Shown here: positions 10,707 to 64,000 of the stretch, one piece after another
Position numbering within the stretch: the stretch's first letter is position 1
Layout: every line of letters starts with the position of its first letter
Assembly: GCA_903886255.1 (NCBI GenBank)
Contig: CAISLM010000072.1
Location: forward strand, 18,648-82,647
Reading direction: 5' to 3'
Source: Candidatus Collierbacteria bacterium
Lineage (GTDB): Bacteria > Patescibacteriota > Microgenomatia > UBA1400 > MFAQ01
DNA: 64,000 nucleotides
The notes under the pieces: model-generated
Told to the model about the DNA's origin: nothing
Seen by the model: only the letters and a program-made list of their open reading frames with translations
Database searches by the model: none
Position numbers and translations under genes: made by a program

Positions 10707-11550
10707 TATCTTTGCATATTCTATTTATACTATTAAGTATCGTGGATTTTTCTTCTTTTCCGATAATGTCATTTACTTGATCGTTGAGAAGTGCACTTTT
10801 TAACCTGGCACAAGTAACTATTCCCCTATCGAGTAAAACTTTTATATCATTTTTGGGAATTTGGTAAAGCAGTGTAACCGGATGCAAGCCAGATTTTATA
10901 ATCATATCTTGTAAGCCTTGATCTTTTGGATGCGTCCAAGTTGTAACCCGAAGACCGACACAACTACAATAATCGAACACTTCAGAAGTAACCTTTGTAT
11001 TTGTTATTAGCCACGAGAAACAATTTTCGGAAGGATTGTTTTTTGTTTGGACATCACTAATATCTAAGAATCTTGCGTAGGTATAAAGAGCAACCTGTAT
11101 GTCGGTTTTATATCCCGGCGTATTGTGGTACTTACACTCAACAAAATATTTCTCGTTTTCCTTTTCGGCAATCACATCAACTTCATGGGTAACACATTTT
11201 CCTTGGGTAACAACTCCAACTTCTGTTTTGAATTTTTCGAGCCTTAAGATATCCGACACTAATATTTCAAATGCAAATCCTGATGGTCCCAAATCCATAA
11301 CGGCTCTTTTAAGGCCATAGTTGAAATAATTTTCAACAGGAGCATTTTTTTGTAGATATGAAGAAACATGACCATAAATTGCACCAGTAGTCATGTCTTC
11401 TTTTAGATGACTCTTTAAGTAACTTACGGCTTGGGAAGCGGTGTCTACAGAAAGTCCTGATTTTGCGAGAGATCTAACCACCTTTTCCTCATTAAATGGT
11501 TCTTTAATCCCCGAAGCCTTGGTTATTGTTATGGGGTTTAGATTTTGCAT
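10699..11550 (-). CDS. ATP-cone domain protein fused to a restriction-endonuclease-like (Mrr/PD-(D/E)xK-like) domain
   Basis: The N-terminus resembles an ATP-cone (ITKASGIKEPFNEEKVVRSL). The central region carries a PD-(D/E)xK-like signature (FAFEILVSDIL...HEVDVIAEKENEKYFVECKYH). Confidence 0.5.
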   Translation of the reverse strand: MQNLNPITITKASGIKEPFNEEKVVRSLAKSGLSVDTASQAVSYLKSHLKEDMTTGAIYGHVSSYLQKNAPVENYFNYGLKRAVMDLGPSGFAFEILVSDILRLEKFKTEVGVVTQGKCVTHEVDVIAEKENEKYFVECKYHNTPGYKTDIQVALYTYARFLDISDVQTKNNPSENCFSWLITNTKVTSEVFDYCSCVGLRVTTWTHPKDQGLQDMIIKSGLHPVTLLYQIPKNDIKVLLDRGIVTCARLKSALLNDQVNDIIGKEEKSTILNSINRICKDNE

Positions 11551-24443: not shown

Positions 24444-24515
24444 TGCCGGATCGTCTAATGGTTGGACGCCACCCTCTGGAGGTGGATATTCTAGGTTCGA
24501 GTCCTAGTCCGGCAA
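24444..24515 (+). tRNA. tRNA-Gln (anticodon CUG)
   Basis: Hand-folded cloverleaf:
- Acceptor stem TGCCGGA/TCCGGCA (U1:A72).
- D-arm GTCT-AATGGTT-GGAC.
- Anticodon stem CCACC/GGTGG with loop CTCTGGA (U33, anticodon CTG).
- T-arm CTAGG-TTCGAGT-CCTAG.
- Discriminator A; no encoded CCA. Confidence 0.8.
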
Positions 24516-24813
24516 CACTTCGGGACAAATCGGTAGGAACGGGGTCAGTCGCCCGCGCGCCCACCCACGCGCGGAGCGATGCGAAGGGCTTTTCCCATTC
24601 CACAATAATCTGTTTATCTTTCAAAAAGAAGTTCGAACCGATGTTTTGGACGAAGATCCGCAGATCTGAGTCCACGGAACCCTTGCGCGCGAATATCTAG
24701 TGAGGATGAAACACTTCAGGAGCTAAATCTATTTTCTCCAGAATATAAAGTTTTTAAGAACATAAAATTCGAAGGATCGTATAACCTTTTTGGTCAGCGA
24801 TTTCTCTACGAGT

Positions 24814-45895: not shown

Positions 45896-46297
45896 ATGAA
45901 GGCACCTCTGCAGGCAATTGAAATTGCGCCCGATCCTCAGATCCGTTTAGATATTATTTTGGGAAAGAAAAAAATCACTATCCGCGAAGGCCACCGGGAT
46001 TACCGCGAAGGCCCGGTAATGCTTTGTACCCACATCTTTCCTTGGGCAGTAAAAACTACCATTACAAGCGTAAGGCATACGACTGTGGCCGAGGTAACAG
46101 AGGATGAATTTTGGGCCGATGGTTACGGAACCCGCATGGAAATGTTGAAGGACTTGAAGAAATTTTATCCAAGTCTTTCTATGAAATCTGCCGTTACCGT
46201 TATTTGCTGGGGAGATATACAGGAAGGATTCTATACCGACATAGATAACATTTATGCCTTTGCAAAGGAAAATAATCTGGATACTTCATATATTTAA
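45896..46297 (+). CDS. ASCH-domain-like protein
   Basis: ILGKKKITIREGHRDYREG resembles the ASCH core (LxGxKTxTxR). Confidence 0.4.
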   Translation: MKAPLQAIEIAPDPQIRLDIILGKKKITIREGHRDYREGPVMLCTHIFPWAVKTTITSVRHTTVAEVTEDEFWADGYGTRMEMLKDLKKFYPSLSMKSAVTVICWGDIQEGFYTDIDNIYAFAKENNLDTSYI

Positions 46298-46303
46298 GGA
46301 TAT

Positions 46304-46331
46304 AGCCAACGAGGAATCGTTGGCTTTTTTT
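46304..46331 (+). terminator. Rho-independent terminator
   Basis: AGCCAACGA-ggaa-TCGTTGGCT (9-bp stem, GGAA loop) followed by TTTTTTT. Confidence 0.75.
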
Positions 46332-46379
46332 CTGGATTGCCACGGCACTTTGTGCCTCGCAATGACGGATTGAGGAATT
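46331..46379 (+). repeat. Structured short repeat, family A, copy 1
   Basis: TCTGGATTGCCACGGCACTTTGTGCCTCGCAATGACGGATTGAGGAATT. About 86% identical to the copy at 55061-55109. It forms a nested hairpin (ATTGC...GCAAT outer, GGCAC/GTGCC inner). Confidence 0.6.
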
Positions 46380-46945
46380 TAAAAAATGTCTTCAGGAGGA
46401 AGAAATTCTTCGCCATTAGCAACCTGGGGTTTATATTCTGTTTTTAACCATTGGACGTAGTCGCAGCCAGTAGCCTGTTTCGCTTCCCTATCCCAACCTG
46501 AGGTGGAACATTTTTTCATCTTTTTACCGGCAGCTGTTGTATATAAAACTAGAGGCTCGCCGCATTTGGGACATTTTTCGTCCAGCTTTTCGGTGGTACC
46601 ATTGATCCATTCAACATAATCACAACCAGTGGCCTTTTTTGCTTCTTTATCCCAGCCGCCGGCACTGCATTTTTTCATTTTTTTACCAAAACGGGTGACT
46701 TGAAGAACTAGTGGTGAGCCGCATTTGGGACATTTTTCGTCAAGGGTTTGGGGTTCAACTTCGAGCCATTTAACGTAATCGCAGCCGTCGGTTTTGTGAG
46801 TTTCTGTATTCCAGACACCTTTTGAACAACGTCTGAGCCTTCTACCTGTTGGGGTTTCTGTAACTTCAGCGAGTGGTGAGCCGCATTTGGGACATTTTTC
46901 TTCTTCCATGGTTATTAGATTAACACATTTGATGCAAGAAACCAA
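46379..46945 (-). CDS. Protein of three tandem topoisomerase-type C4 zinc-ribbon repeats
   Basis: Three repeats of (E)KCPKCGxPL...(K)C...GW...TGCDYVxW, resembling zf-C4_Topoisom. It is the last gene of the gltX-containing minus-strand operon. Confidence 0.55.
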   Translation of the reverse strand: MVSCIKCVNLITMEEEKCPKCGSPLAEVTETPTGRRLRRCSKGVWNTETHKTDGCDYVKWLEVEPQTLDEKCPKCGSPLVLQVTRFGKKMKKCSAGGWDKEAKKATGCDYVEWINGTTEKLDEKCPKCGEPLVLYTTAAGKKMKKCSTSGWDREAKQATGCDYVQWLKTEYKPQVANGEEFLPPEDIF

Positions 46946-54636: not shown

Positions 54637-54990
54637 TCAAAAGTCTGATCCGCCAAAGGATGGGGTAATATATGTGCCGACGAGTTTGATACCACAATGG
54701 GGGCAGCGATCAGGATGTCCCTGCAGAATTCCAACACAATTTCCACAGCTATTGAAACCAAAATCACCTCCGTCTGTGACAGTAATATCAACTGTCGCAG
54801 TTTTTTCCGTTTCTGAGCTAATTGTTCCTTCGAGTTTGACGCCACAAAAGGGACAGATTTTATCAAGAATTGTTATTTCCGCCAAACAATTTTCACAGGT
54901 TTCATATGCAAAACCATTTTTCCAAGGGTGAATTACAATGCGTGCGGTTTTGTTCGGATCTTTCGGTGCCGTTGTGAGATCATCAGACAT
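54637..54990 (-). CDS. Double zinc-ribbon protein
   Basis: Two CxxC...CxxC units (CENCL...CPFCGVKL and CGNCVG...CPHCGIKL). Confidence 0.5.
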   Translation of the reverse strand: MSDDLTTAPKDPNKTARIVIHPWKNGFAYETCENCLAEITILDKICPFCGVKLEGTISSETEKTATVDITVTDGGDFGFNSCGNCVGILQGHPDRCPHCGIKLVGTYITPSFGGSDF

Positions 54991-55060
54991 TAAGTATCTC
55001 CTTCGAAATGAAATGTGCCAACTTGTTTTTGAATTGTAGCAGAAATATTATCTGGATTGC

Positions 55061-55109
55061 CACAGCACTTCGTGCTTCGCAATGACGAATGTGGAATTAT
55101 TGTAATTCC
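55061..55109 (+). repeat. Structured short repeat, family A, copy 2
   Basis: TCTGGATTGCCACAGCACTTCGTGCTTCGCAATGACGAATGTGGAATTA. The inner stem changes from GGCAC/GTGCC to AGCAC/GTGCT, which is a compensatory pair of changes relative to copy 1. Confidence 0.6.
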
Positions 55110-55178
55110 AAGTCAAGCCCGGAATGAGATAAATGAGGATGCTTTGATTCGAGTAAGAATCTCAAGATAACGGAATAC

Positions 55179-61699: not shown

Positions 61700-62025
61700 A
61701 CGTACTCCCGGGTGCTGGTGAGGAACGCCCCGCCTATGGCGGGGAGGAAAGTCCGGACAGCAAAAAGGAAGGGTGACCAAGGAAACTTGGTTCCATTTAG
61801 GGCGACCTAAGTGGCGCGATAGGGCCACAGAGACGAATAAAGGTGAAACGCTCTTGGATACAAGAGATTCCATAAGAGTAATTTTATGGAAGTGGTAACC
61901 CGCCCCGCTGCAATCGACGAATTGGGATTAAGGTGCCTTTTCCGTCCCAGAAGTCTCGAGCATTAGATAGATGTTCCTCCTAGACAAAATCCGGCTTACT
62001 ATGGCCCGGGGGTCCCGAAAGGGTC
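61700..62025 (+). ncRNA. rnpB: RNase P RNA (bacterial type A); boundaries approximate
   Basis: P3 hairpin CGCCCCGCC-tatg-GCGGGG, then the universally conserved P4 strand AGGAAAGTCCGGAC. Further 3': AAAGGTGAAACGC, GGTAACCCGCCCCGCTGCAA and ACAAAATCCGGCTTA (cf. ACAGAAyCCGGCUUA). A TATAAT lies about 10 nt upstream. Confidence 0.8.
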
Positions 62026-62044: not shown

Positions 62045-63040
62045 TTATTGAAGTTCGGGAACGTTCGTCGTTTTATTAAATCTGACGTGGGTAAGAAGTA
62101 CTTTGATCGAAAGTACTAATGGAATGGCGAGAACTGACATGAGCGGCCCACCAATTTTTAGACCCATCATGACGGCCAAGATAGTAATGATAGGATTTAA
62201 ACCTGCGGCATGCTTCATGACTGTTGGGGTAATCAAATTGTTTTCTAGTTGGTGAATTAATATCGAGACAACGAGAGCACCCAAACCCAAAGCTGGAGAG
62301 ATTGAAAAACCGACTATGGCAGCAGGAATGGCTGCAACAACGGGTCCAATGCTAGGAATAATTTCCAACAAACCCGCTATCAGTGTTAATGGAAGAACAT
62401 ATGGAATGCCGATAATCGAAAAACCAATGAAGGCCAAGATGCCGATAATCAGCATCAAGATTAATTCTCCCCTGAACCAGTTTCCAATTTGGACTTCCAA
62501 CTCGTTAACTACTTTGTAATAGGCTTCCCCTTTTTGGCCAAACCAAACCTTTAGGTCTGTTTCAATTTTTGATCTCTCTTGAAGCAGATAAAAACTCATA
62601 ACTATTACGGCTAAAACCGATATTGCACCGGTTAGGGTATCGATGGCAAAATTGAAAAATTTGCCAGGCACACTACCGATTTGTGAAGAAAAATCATTAA
62701 AATCTAGCTGATAAGGTAGTACTTTATTTGTGAGGTCAGGGAGTCTTTGAAATAATTGTTGCGTTTGAGTAATTATTGGGGAGATAACTGTGGAGATGGC
62801 AAAAACAAAAATAGAAAAGACTGTTATCAAAATCAAAATTGAAGAGACACCGCGATGGATTTTTTTATTTTCCAATTTTTGAACGAGTGGACTGATTGAG
62901 AATGAAATAATCAGTGAGGCAAACAACAAGATTAATATGTTATACGTACTGGCAAAGAAAAAGATTGCAGCAACTATTACTAATATTCGAAAAATCGAGG
63001 ATAGGGAGATATCAATAACCACATGGCGTTTTTTAAGCAT
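62045..63040 (-). CDS. AI-2E family transporter (UPF0118/PerM-like)
   Basis: Eight-TM protein with the family-typical LIAGLLEIIPSIGPVVAAIPAAIVGF segment. Confidence 0.75.
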   Translation of the reverse strand: MLKKRHVVIDISLSSIFRILVIVAAIFFFASTYNILILLFASLIISFSISPLVQKLENKKIHRGVSSILILITVFSIFVFAISTVISPIITQTQQLFQRLPDLTNKVLPYQLDFNDFSSQIGSVPGKFFNFAIDTLTGAISVLAVIVMSFYLLQERSKIETDLKVWFGQKGEAYYKVVNELEVQIGNWFRGELILMLIIGILAFIGFSIIGIPYVLPLTLIAGLLEIIPSIGPVVAAIPAAIVGFSISPALGLGALVVSILIHQLENNLITPTVMKHAAGLNPIITILAVMMGLKIGGPLMSVLAIPLVLSIKVLLTHVRFNKTTNVPELQ

Positions 63041-64000
63041 TTTGGAAATATTTTTTCAATTCTTTTATCAGCAAGTTTCTATCTATGTCTTTATCATACC
63101 AAACAATGTCATTTTGTTTTTTGAACCAGACAATTTGTCTTCTGGCATAGTCGGCTTCGGCATTTGTCCACTGTTCCACTAACTGATTTTTGGTTATATT
63201 TCCGCTTAAAAAGTTAATTATTTGAGATACACCAAGACCGGTATAGATAGGAAGAGTATGGTCCGGATAATTTTTGATTAATCTATTTACTTCATCGATA
63301 GCCCCTTCATCAATTCTTTTAATTACCCTATTTTTAATATTTGTTTTGAGTGTATTTTTGTCGGGCATTAAACCGATCCAACGAAAATTAACTTCAGAAA
63401 ATGGTGTTACTTGTATAAGAGCTTGCTCGTGTTTTGTCGATAACTGCGTTATCTTTACTAAACACTTGTGCTTCCTCTTATATTCGCTTGTAACTTCGTT
63501 ACAATGCTTGAATATGGATTCCGGGTCAAGCCCGGAATGACTTTCCGAAATTTCGATTTGCCTAATTAAACGACGGGGGTTCATTATGTCAGAATGGTTT
63601 AACGATGAGAATTTTTCAGGATTTTCTTTTTGCAATAGGCCTTGAAGTTCAGATAGAGATAATTTTTCCAATTTCTGACGTAATTTTTGATTGGGAGGAA
63701 TTAAGATATTGGAAAGATTTTGCGTAATGGCTTTAAGATAGAGCCCCGTACCGCCGACAATTACGAGAGGGGTATTTGTATCCTTAGAATTCTGAATTAT
63801 TTTTTGAGAGTATCGGACAAAATCAGCGAGATTCGCAGTTTCATCCGGTTCAAACAAATCGTGTCCGAAAATATTTATTCCTTTGGGTAAACTGTCCGGA
63901 ATATCCTTACCGGAGATTATGTCCAAACTTTTGTAAACTTGTCTGGAATCAACGGAAAGAATGTTAACTTTGGGAAGAGCTTTAGCTAATTGAAGTGCCA
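63033..64000 (-). CDS. miaA: tRNA dimethylallyltransferase, N-terminally truncated by the window edge
   Basis: The frame is open to base 64000 (…ALQLAKALPKVNILSVDSRQVYKSLDIISGKD = MiaA ADSMQVYKGMDIGTAK region). Downstream MiaA core motifs follow (LVIVGGTGLY, NPRRLIRQIEI). The ORF-track TTG start at 63926 is internal. Confidence 0.8.
   Translation of the reverse strand, partial: ALQLAKALPKVNILSVDSRQVYKSLDIISGKDIPDSLPKGINIFGHDLFEPDETANLADFVRYSQKIIQNSKDTNTPLVIVGGTGLYLKAITQNLSNILIPPNQKLRQKLEKLSLSELQGLLQKENPEKFSSLNHSDIMNPRRLIRQIEISESHSGLDPESIFKHCNEVTSEYKRKHKCLVKITQLSTKHEQALIQVTPFSEVNFRWIGLMPDKNTLKTNIKNRVIKRIDEGAIDEVNRLIKNYPDHTLPIYTGLGVSQIINFLSGNITKNQLVEQWTNAEADYARRQIVWFKKQNDIVWYDKDIDRNLLIKELKKYFQNA
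63411..63542 (+). repeat. Structured short repeat, family B copy 2 plus module C, lying inside the miaA coding frame
   Basis: TATAAGAGCTTGCTC + palindrome GATAACTGCGTTATC + TTCCTCTTATA, then hairpin TTGTAAC-ttcg-TTACAA, then ATTCCGGGTCAAGCCCGGAATGA. The last module occurs again at 55114-55137. Confidence 0.55.

Follow-up and report, generated by a model that had tools for sequence, protein, structure and literature searches.

A nested-hairpin repeat in a Candidatus Collierbacteria contig is a probable member of the CGTC-tagged REP and Ssn-related-motif class

A 64,000-nucleotide stretch of the genome of a Candidatus Collierbacteria bacterium (contig CAISLM010000072.1, hereafter the window), a member of the Candidate Phyla Radiation (CPR), contains two closely similar copies of a short element that folds into one hairpin nested within another. 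A first-pass annotation, made from the letters of the sequence, described the element as a structured repeat accompanying two zinc-ribbon genes, which raises the question of what kind of repeat it is and what, if anything, acts on it. We propose, with good though not full confidence, that both copies are dispersed members of the class of repeats described as CGTC-tagged repetitive extragenic palindromes (REPs) and as Ssn-related motifs (SRMs), a class whose Neisseria members are bound and cut as single-stranded DNA by Ssn, a small nuclease of the GIY-YIG family. Within this class the element is, judged by its sequence, a nested-hairpin variant with an ATTGC stem, residing in a CPR bacterium. 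The two copies and their parts, in window coordinates, are as follows.

46331-46379, minus strand: copy 1, an ATTGC-type SRM / CGTC-tagged hairpin repeat, with the sequence quoted in the first-pass annotation
46332-46335: tail of copy 1, CTGG on the plus strand (CCAG on the minus strand)
46336-46340 and 46359-46363: outer stem of copy 1, ATTGC pairing with GCAAT (plus coordinates)
46341-46343 and 46357-46358: internal loop of copy 1, CAC and TC on the plus strand (GA/GTG on the minus strand)
46344-46348 and 46352-46356: distal stem of copy 1, GGCAC pairing with GTGCC
46349-46351: loop of copy 1, TTT on the plus strand (AAA on the minus strand)
46364-46367: head of copy 1, GACG on the plus strand (CGTC on the minus strand)
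55051-55099, minus strand: copy 2 of the ATTGC-type SRM / CGTC-tagged hairpin repeat
55052-55055: tail of copy 2, CTGG
55056-55060 and 55079-55083: outer stem of copy 2, ATTGC pairing with GCAAT
55061-55063 and 55077-55078: internal loop of copy 2, CAC and TC
55064-55068 and 55072-55076: distal stem of copy 2, AGCAC pairing with GTGCT
55069-55071: loop of copy 2, TTC (GAA on the minus strand)
55084-55087: head of copy 2, GACG

The copies share a 32-nt core, GATTGCCAC[R]GCACTT[Y]GTGC[Y]TCGCAATGAC, at 46335-46366 and 55055-55086, which had no match across 100 dinucleotide-preserving shuffles. Their alignment (repeat family D7) extends over ~43 nt at 88% identity (46328-46370 against 55048-55090), with weak similarity at positions 46369-46379. 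Likeness ends abruptly on both sides and the flanks are unrelated; the copies therefore do not stem from a segmental duplication, a possibility that the first-pass annotation had raised against its own reading. The coordinates it gave for copy 1 are exact, whereas those for copy 2 (55061-55109) are 10 nt too high. Three positions differ within the core. Two of them, 46344 (G to A) and 46356 (C to T), make up the outermost pair of the inner stem, and the third, 46351 (T to C), is in the loop. As had been proposed, the predicted structure is a nested hairpin, with ATTGC/GCAAT as the outer and RGCAC/GTGCY as the inner stem, and it comes out as the minimum-energy or the centroid fold for either strand under RNA and DNA parameters alike. 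Read on the minus strand, the head runs into the outer stem as cCGTC/ATTGC in copy 1 (46367-46364) and as tCGTC/ATTGC in copy 2 (55087-55084), and in both copies GCAAT is followed by CCAGa.

These two copies belong to a far larger family. The constant-arm pattern GGATTGC-N10-30-TCGCAATGAC had at least 120 matches in IMG/VR viral contigs and at least 120 in one-genome-per-species bacterial genomes, while the exact GCAC-stem sub-family had at least 120 in metagenomes of the Joint Genome Institute (JGI). Its general form on the minus strand is YGTC-ATTGC-GA-[stem-loop]-GNR-GCAAT-CCA(G), in which constant arms enclose a middle that is hypervariable and yet stays palindromic (for example, CAC-GGGC-TTT-GCCC, CAC-GGCAGTG-TGCG-CACTGCC and CAC-AGCCCC-TGT-GGGGCT). 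Both window copies keep every family-constant position together with a perfectly paired distal stem. Among the matches listed, hosts include Bradyrhizobium, Sphingomonas and many other Alphaproteobacteria, Gammaproteobacteria, the CPR lineages Paceibacterota and Buchananbacteria, Anaerolineae and Dehalococcoidia (Chloroflexi), Bacteroidetes, Oscillospiraceae (Firmicutes), Planctomycetota, Melainabacteria and Helicobacter rodentium. Searching the literature by literal sequence (TCGCAATGAC or GTCATTGCGA) returned primer coincidences alone.

Family members are arranged as singletons, as head-to-head pairs ~20-25 nt apart, or as same-orientation arrays of up to 17 units. Head-to-head pairs prevail in the proteobacterial loci among the matches listed; in the window, elements stand singly except for one head-to-tail pair, of which one partner is decayed. 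Two IMG/VR loci carry tandem same-orientation arrays of 8-17 ATTGC-type units with ~10-nt spacers (L052 2670-5104 and L072 8305-10739), and these arrays alternate between the distal-stem variants GGGC-TTT-GCCC and GC-TTC-GC.

Is the pairing itself what has been preserved in this variable middle? Distal stems were perfect over at least 5 bp in 28 of 120 unique elements, compared with 41 of 2400 shuffles, and when symmetric pairing was forced, 71% of cells were Watson-Crick versus 31% in shuffled cores. The pair that differs between the window copies was G-C in 98, A-T in 25, G-T in three and unpaired in three of 129 further members of the sub-family, which places 123 of the 129 in Watson-Crick pairs; the additional copies are compensatory. 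We also counted covariation in a set of 24 sequences of 35 nt, picked by length alone and blind to pairing. Double-sided changes were found at 6 of 6 distal-stem pairs, 88.6% of cells were paired as opposed to 30-46% when the 3' partners were slid, and the covariation score was reached by 0 of 500 shuffles. Since compensatory changes and an excess of pairing over shuffles are found family-wide, base pairing of the distal stem is under selection, which is what the first-pass annotation had concluded from the two copies. The 33-nt length class was dropped from the covariation count, being dominated by a G.A-mismatch form that we call type II. This common form reads G-GA-GC-GAA-GC-GA-C on the CGTC strand, and its apparent mismatches are probably structural: GCGAAGC forms a mini-hairpin, which stacks on a putative tandem sheared G.A pair. 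Kink-turn and tRNA-like readings of the internal loop were dropped, as the sequence did not support them.

We clustered all open reading frames (ORFs) within 2.5 kb of elements at ~360 loci. Only one family of neighbours proved linked to the element as such, a ~95-aa GIY-YIG protein (Pfam PF01541; NCBIfam gave nothing above cut-off), whose gene lies 9-32 nt from elements and is flanked by them on both sides. The other recurrent neighbours across these loci are phage structural or housekeeping families. At L003 and L173 the GIY-YIG gene is flanked by other flavours of CGTC hairpin, which fell outside the selection of the scan. To control for bias, 32 GIY-YIG loci were fetched by protein similarity alone, regardless of repeats. 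YGTC-AT...AT-CCA hairpins lie within 250 nt of the gene at 17 of these 32 independent loci, and element density is 2.95 per kb near the gene versus 0.12 per kb elsewhere. The usual layout is an element on the plus strand, 36-42 nt, the gene, 20-43 nt and an element on the minus strand, with the heads pointing outward, and many of the hairpins that flank independent GIY-YIG genes are exactly CGTCATTCCCGCGAAAGCGGGAATCCA.

The same arrangement is found within Collierbacteria, which encode Ssn homologues (P0121, P0123 and P0127). P0121 carries the annotation 'Endonuclease [Candidatus Collierbacteria bacterium GW2011_GWC2_44_18]', and P0127 is encoded on the 790-kb contig Ga0265292_1000009, which also carries a Collierbacteria homologue of SecF (P0013). 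Four Collierbacteria loci (L397, L398, L402 and L403) have the element-ssn-element layout with ATTGC-type hairpins, and in L402 and L403 the element GTCATTGCGAAGCACGCAGTGCTGTGGCAATCC, located 10 nt past the ssn stop, matches window copy 2 at every base but the middle one of the loop. A comM-type Mg-chelatase gene lies directly upstream of ssn in eight of the nine Collierbacteria ssn loci with a visible upstream gene (found among L398-L407, not in L397), and dprA lies ~3 kb upstream of ssn in L398. Both comM and dprA are natural-transformation genes, and their presence near ssn fits the transformation role reported for Neisseria SsnA.

The Neisseria system provides the closest functional description. 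There, ssnA is flanked by the motif NTS, CGTCATTCCCGCGMAVGCGGGAATCYRG, which contains dRS3, and by related SRM motifs (Chenal 2025, Nat Commun; PMC11893778). In that paper, SsnA is a 94-aa single-domain GIY-YIG protein that binds the motif as single-stranded DNA only, not as the reverse strand, duplex DNA or RNA, and cuts a few nucleotides upstream of it; the three bases before the NTS palindrome (GTC) govern cutting and the C after the palindrome governs binding (PMC11893778). The same paper reports that the Neisseria Ssn system lowers transformation by NTS-bearing DNA and that Ssn homologues of other species have their own specificities (PMC11893778).

The family described here resembles SRM and NTS in its CGTC head, its oriented hairpin with a palindrome starting ATT, its AATCC(A/G)G tail, its many dispersed and mostly intergenic copies, and the repeat-ssn-repeat arrangement around ~90-aa single-domain GIY-YIG genes. 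Both window copies have GTC directly 5' of the palindrome and C directly 3' of it within an AATCYRG-type tail, and the element is a hairpin-forming inverted repeat of 20-50 nt. It differs in having an ATTGC stem, where NTS has ATTCCC, and in its two-tiered hairpin, which has an internal loop of purines (GA/GNR) and whose distal stem is hypervariable and 2-8 bp long. The host also differs, as a CPR bacterium is concerned here and the main text of Chenal 2025 uses neither 'Patescibacteria' nor 'Candidate Phyla' (PMC11893778). Neisseria dRS3 (ATTCCC-N8-GGGAAT), which is the NTS core, shows the same head and tail logic as the window elements, and a further element of the window at 63516-63541 (ATTCCGGG...CCCGGAAT) is of the same simple type; the stem sequences differ, however, and dRS3 is defined without oriented flanks.

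A second description of the same class comes from Di Nocera 2013 (BMC Genomics; PMC3733652), which defines CGTC-tagged REPs by a CGTC/TGTC head, an A-T start of the stem and a CCA tail, and reports them mostly as head-to-head dimers, in five phyla, mostly downstream of ORFs and with no dedicated transposase. Both window copies have the CGTC/TGTC head, a stem whose first two positions are A-T and the CCA tail, and the family shares the lack of a dedicated Y1 transposase (PMC3733652). Head-to-head dimers dominate among its alphaproteobacterial loci, whereas the window elements are singletons or tandem.

The two strands of the hairpin are not equivalent. Central loops on the CGTC strand were GAA in 39, GCA in 27, GTA in 10 and GGA in four cases in an unbiased set (n = 210), and GAA in 40, GCA in 30 and GTA in 21 in the sub-family (n = 129). 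On this strand the loop is closed by C-G, the commonest short form contains GCGAAGC, and non-Watson-Crick cells comprise 157 G.A/A.G versus 24 T.C/C.T. In DNA, mini-hairpins of the type d(C-GNA-G), such as d(GCGAAGC), and tandem sheared G.A pairs have an unusual stability, which the complementary pyrimidine versions lack. Since GNA loops and G.A mismatches fall on one strand, this asymmetry points to the CGTC strand as the one that folds as single-stranded DNA.

The orientation of the elements was examined relative to genes and to base composition. No bias was found relative to co-directional flanking genes (31:31), a count made with a crude longest-ORF caller that scored many elements as genic, probably by over-extending ORFs, and limited to 62 clean tandem singletons; this balance argues against a strand-specific RNA role. 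For base composition we used fetched loci with net orientation, within L001-L364. The CGTC strand lay on the locally C-rich rather than the G-rich strand in a ratio of 67:26 at viral loci (p = 2.5e-5), where skew is confounded with the majority coding strand (62:31), of 35:13 in the metagenome sub-family (p = 0.002), where it is not (24:24), and of 37:35 in the genome set (not significant). Within the window, three intact SRM-type elements and a decayed fourth all have CGTC on the minus strand, and plus-strand GC skew is positive in every bin. This evidence is mixed, and the orientation may fit an avoidance of the lagging-strand template.

Based on these comparisons, we suggest that the working form of the element would be minus-strand single-stranded DNA, 5'-CGTC-ATTGC-GA-[RGCAC-GNA/AAA-GTGCY]-GTG-GCAAT-CCAG-3'. 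Whenever the minus strand is unpaired, whether in incoming transforming DNA or in replication or repair intermediates, it would fold into the two-tier hairpin. What would be held constant is the proximal module, in which GTC forms the head, ATTGC/GCAAT forms the stem, purines make up the internal loop and C follows the palindrome; the distal stem-loop would be free to vary provided that its pairing is kept. By analogy with SsnA, an Ssn-family nuclease, small and with GIY-YIG as its single domain, would bind this hairpin and nick a few nucleotides 5' of the head, predicted on the minus strand near 46368-46375 at copy 1 and near 55088-55095 at copy 2. We infer that the Ssn of Collierbacteria would recognise the ATTGC variant, as its Neisseria counterpart recognises NTS, that the window's own genome would encode such a protein, and that the two intergenic copies would have spread through linkage to Ssn and now act as its sites.

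The genomic context of the two copies bears on both this proposal and the earlier association with zinc-ribbon genes. A terminator does lie next to copy 1 (46304-46325, plus strand), as the first-pass annotation stated, but it belongs to a plus-strand ASCH-domain gene (45896-46297), and the triple zinc-ribbon gene (46379-46945) is on the minus strand, convergent with the ASCH gene. The stop codon of the triple zinc-ribbon gene (46379-46381) abuts the 49-nt span of copy 1, with ~11 nt left to the conserved head. Copy 2 is situated between two minus-strand genes: the secF stop (55179) is ~80 nt upstream of it, and the double zinc-ribbon ORF starts (54990) 60 nt beyond it, not 70 bp as previously given. 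Both copies are present and unchanged in a contig of the same species (L241, with 100% identical SecF). By SecF similarity the window falls within Candidatus Collierbacteria, the best named SecF homologues having ~70% identity to that of the window. The contigs L242 and L243, with 85% and 78% SecF identity, contain no copies of the element in the syntenic 20 kb, and both keep the triple zinc-ribbon gene. In L242 the convergent cca gene follows immediately on secF (10849-10851) and the double zinc-ribbon gene is absent; in L243 an unrelated 181-aa ORF occupies the place of the double zinc-ribbon gene (window 54637-54990). Judging from these contigs, the region downstream of secF is a variable spot. 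Because L242 and L243 lack the copies and yet conserve the triple zinc-ribbon gene, the copies are lineage-specific gains or losses that are untied to the zinc-ribbon genes. The proposed zinc-ribbon link fails beyond this site as well, as members of the family stand in hundreds of unrelated settings across many phyla and the one neighbour linked to the element is the GIY-YIG nuclease. The triple zinc-ribbon gene contains three direct DNA repeats of 159-162 nt with 71-76% identity (46443-46903, D1-D3), which would make internal triplication its origin.

Several observations weigh against the assignment of the copies to this class and to Ssn. The 64-kb window contains neither ssn nor the genes that neighbour it in Collierbacteria, comM, NYN and UPF0102. 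The published SRM pattern, HGTCWYN(0-2)YYVSBRHN(0-5)WNVSBRGN(0-2)RNCYNB, matches neither copy, nor the 63516 element, nor any other place in the window; NTS, used as a positive control, does match, and the pattern is a search heuristic derived from 29 genomes rather than a definition of the family. CGTC REP families, compared by their description in the text, have 8-9-bp stems and 4-5-nt loops, whereas the window element has 5 bp, a 2x3 internal loop, 5 bp and a triloop (PMC3733652). In the Neisseria experiments, changing the sequence of the palindrome while keeping its structure abolished activity (PMC11893778), so a freely variable distal stem would imply a different specificity. It should also be noted that the empty-site comparison gives presence or absence alone and no clean insertion scar, and that L242 and L243 also differ from the window in gene content at both positions.

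How else might the copies be explained? They could be orphan relics, that is, decaying leftovers of the spread of an SRM-type mobile element in a genome without Ssn, and now functionless. Such relics would be in keeping with a window where ssn was not found, with two or three intact copies in 64 kb next to a decayed neighbour (55104-55128), and with close relatives that have no copies; yet all constant positions and a perfectly paired distal stem are retained in both copies, the same-species contig L241 keeps both unchanged, and other Collierbacteria carry ssn together with the same sub-family, and we therefore regard this explanation as unlikely, if still deserving some weight. Recruitment by the host alone, as a transcription terminator or as a stabiliser of mRNA 3' ends of the kind proposed for Escherichia coli REPs, would suit copies that both lie just downstream of genes and a class that Di Nocera 2013 found mostly downstream of ORFs (PMC3733652). 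We consider it improbable, as no T-run follows the hairpin on either strand at either copy, a scan for intrinsic terminators reports the separate hairpin at 46304-46325 (plus strand) beside copy 1 alone and nothing at copy 2, and arms that are constant across phyla would be left unexplained.

We give very little credence to a cis-acting structured RNA, whether a hairpin in an untranslated region or a small RNA tied to the zinc-ribbon neighbours, which was the role implied by the first-pass annotation. At both copies the flanking genes on the minus strand have CGTC on their sense strand, and the hairpin also folds as RNA, but the even orientation between co-directional genes (31:31), the hundreds of unrelated contexts and the fact that L242 and L243 conserve the triple zinc-ribbon gene while lacking the element all speak against such a role. 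Rfam 15, run over the whole window at the gathering threshold, reports RNase P and one tRNA alone and leaves the element unmatched, and a relaxed scan of 46250-46450 gives sub-threshold matches solely on the neighbouring terminator. GNA loops and G.A mismatches favour hairpins of the DNA type, and the published cognate protein, SsnA, binds single-stranded DNA and not RNA (PMC11893778). Just as improbable is a classical REP or REPIN moved by a REP-associated tyrosine transposase (RAYT, of the Y1 HUH type) or an end of the IS200/IS605 type. These systems share with the window elements short extragenic palindromes recognised in single-stranded DNA, head-to-head dimers, clusters and tandem arrays in many genomes, and a small nuclease gene flanked by repeats. 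They have an HUH Y1 fold and a GTAG head, however, in place of the GIY-YIG domain and the CGTC/TGTC head found here, and Di Nocera 2013 found no RAYT flanked by CGTC units (PMC3733652). Moreover, no recurrent transposase cluster was found near the ~360 element loci, the recurrent small neighbour examined is the GIY-YIG protein, and elements are strongly enriched in the flanks of GIY-YIG genes. The assignment of both copies to the CGTC-tagged REP and SRM class remains our preferred explanation.

Further copies in the window were sought by mismatch-tolerant searches for the arms and by a generic finder of GTCAT palindromes. The additional elements and the structured RNAs of the window are as follows.

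63516-63541, minus strand: intact second-flavour SRM/CGTC-type element, GTC-ATTCCGGG-CTTGA-CCCGGAAT-CC, a simple 8-bp hairpin
55104-55128, minus strand: decayed second-flavour SRM-type element, cTC-ATTCCGGGCTTGACTTGGAAT
61707-62014: bacterial RNase P RNA class A (110 bits), an ordinary housekeeping RNA
24444-24516: tRNA-Gln(CTG), an ordinary housekeeping RNA

The intact element at 63516-63541 has its head, tail and strand as in copies 1 and 2. It falls within an over-long ORF with a TTG start (63033-63926), and because an SRM-type element sits inside this ORF, its true start is probably downstream of the element. The decayed element is placed head-to-tail with copy 2, just 5' of it on the minus strand, and a small palindrome, GGAATTAcaaTAATTCC, lies between the two at 55093-55109.

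A broader proposal, which we put forward only tentatively and hold to be rather doubtful as yet, is that ATTGC-type elements constitute a distinct and very widespread specificity class of Ssn. The nuclease of such a class would read the constant module alone (GTC, ATTGC/GCAAT, GA/GNR and the CC tail) and would tolerate any distal hairpin, and the published SRM pattern would therefore miss it. Orientation would perhaps be selected such that the cleavable CGTC strand lies on the C-rich strand, the leading-strand template, which would spare replication forks from self-cutting. In CPR bacteria, where ssn neighbours comM and has dprA nearby, imported single-stranded DNA may be what the system acts on.

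For annotation, the motif accounts for a very common kind of spurious short ORF and of otherwise unexplained intergenic palindrome, and it should not be taken for a gene-specific riboregulator. Since the published SRM pattern misses the nested-hairpin variant, Ssn-associated repeats have probably been under-counted. Should the distal stem prove truly free to vary, the family would supply a nuclease with a short constant module as its recognition site and a designable hairpin beside it, which could serve tools for single-stranded DNA. Overall, we suggest that these findings would extend the Ssn/SRM system to the CPR lineage Collierbacteria and to a nested-hairpin variant of its repeats.

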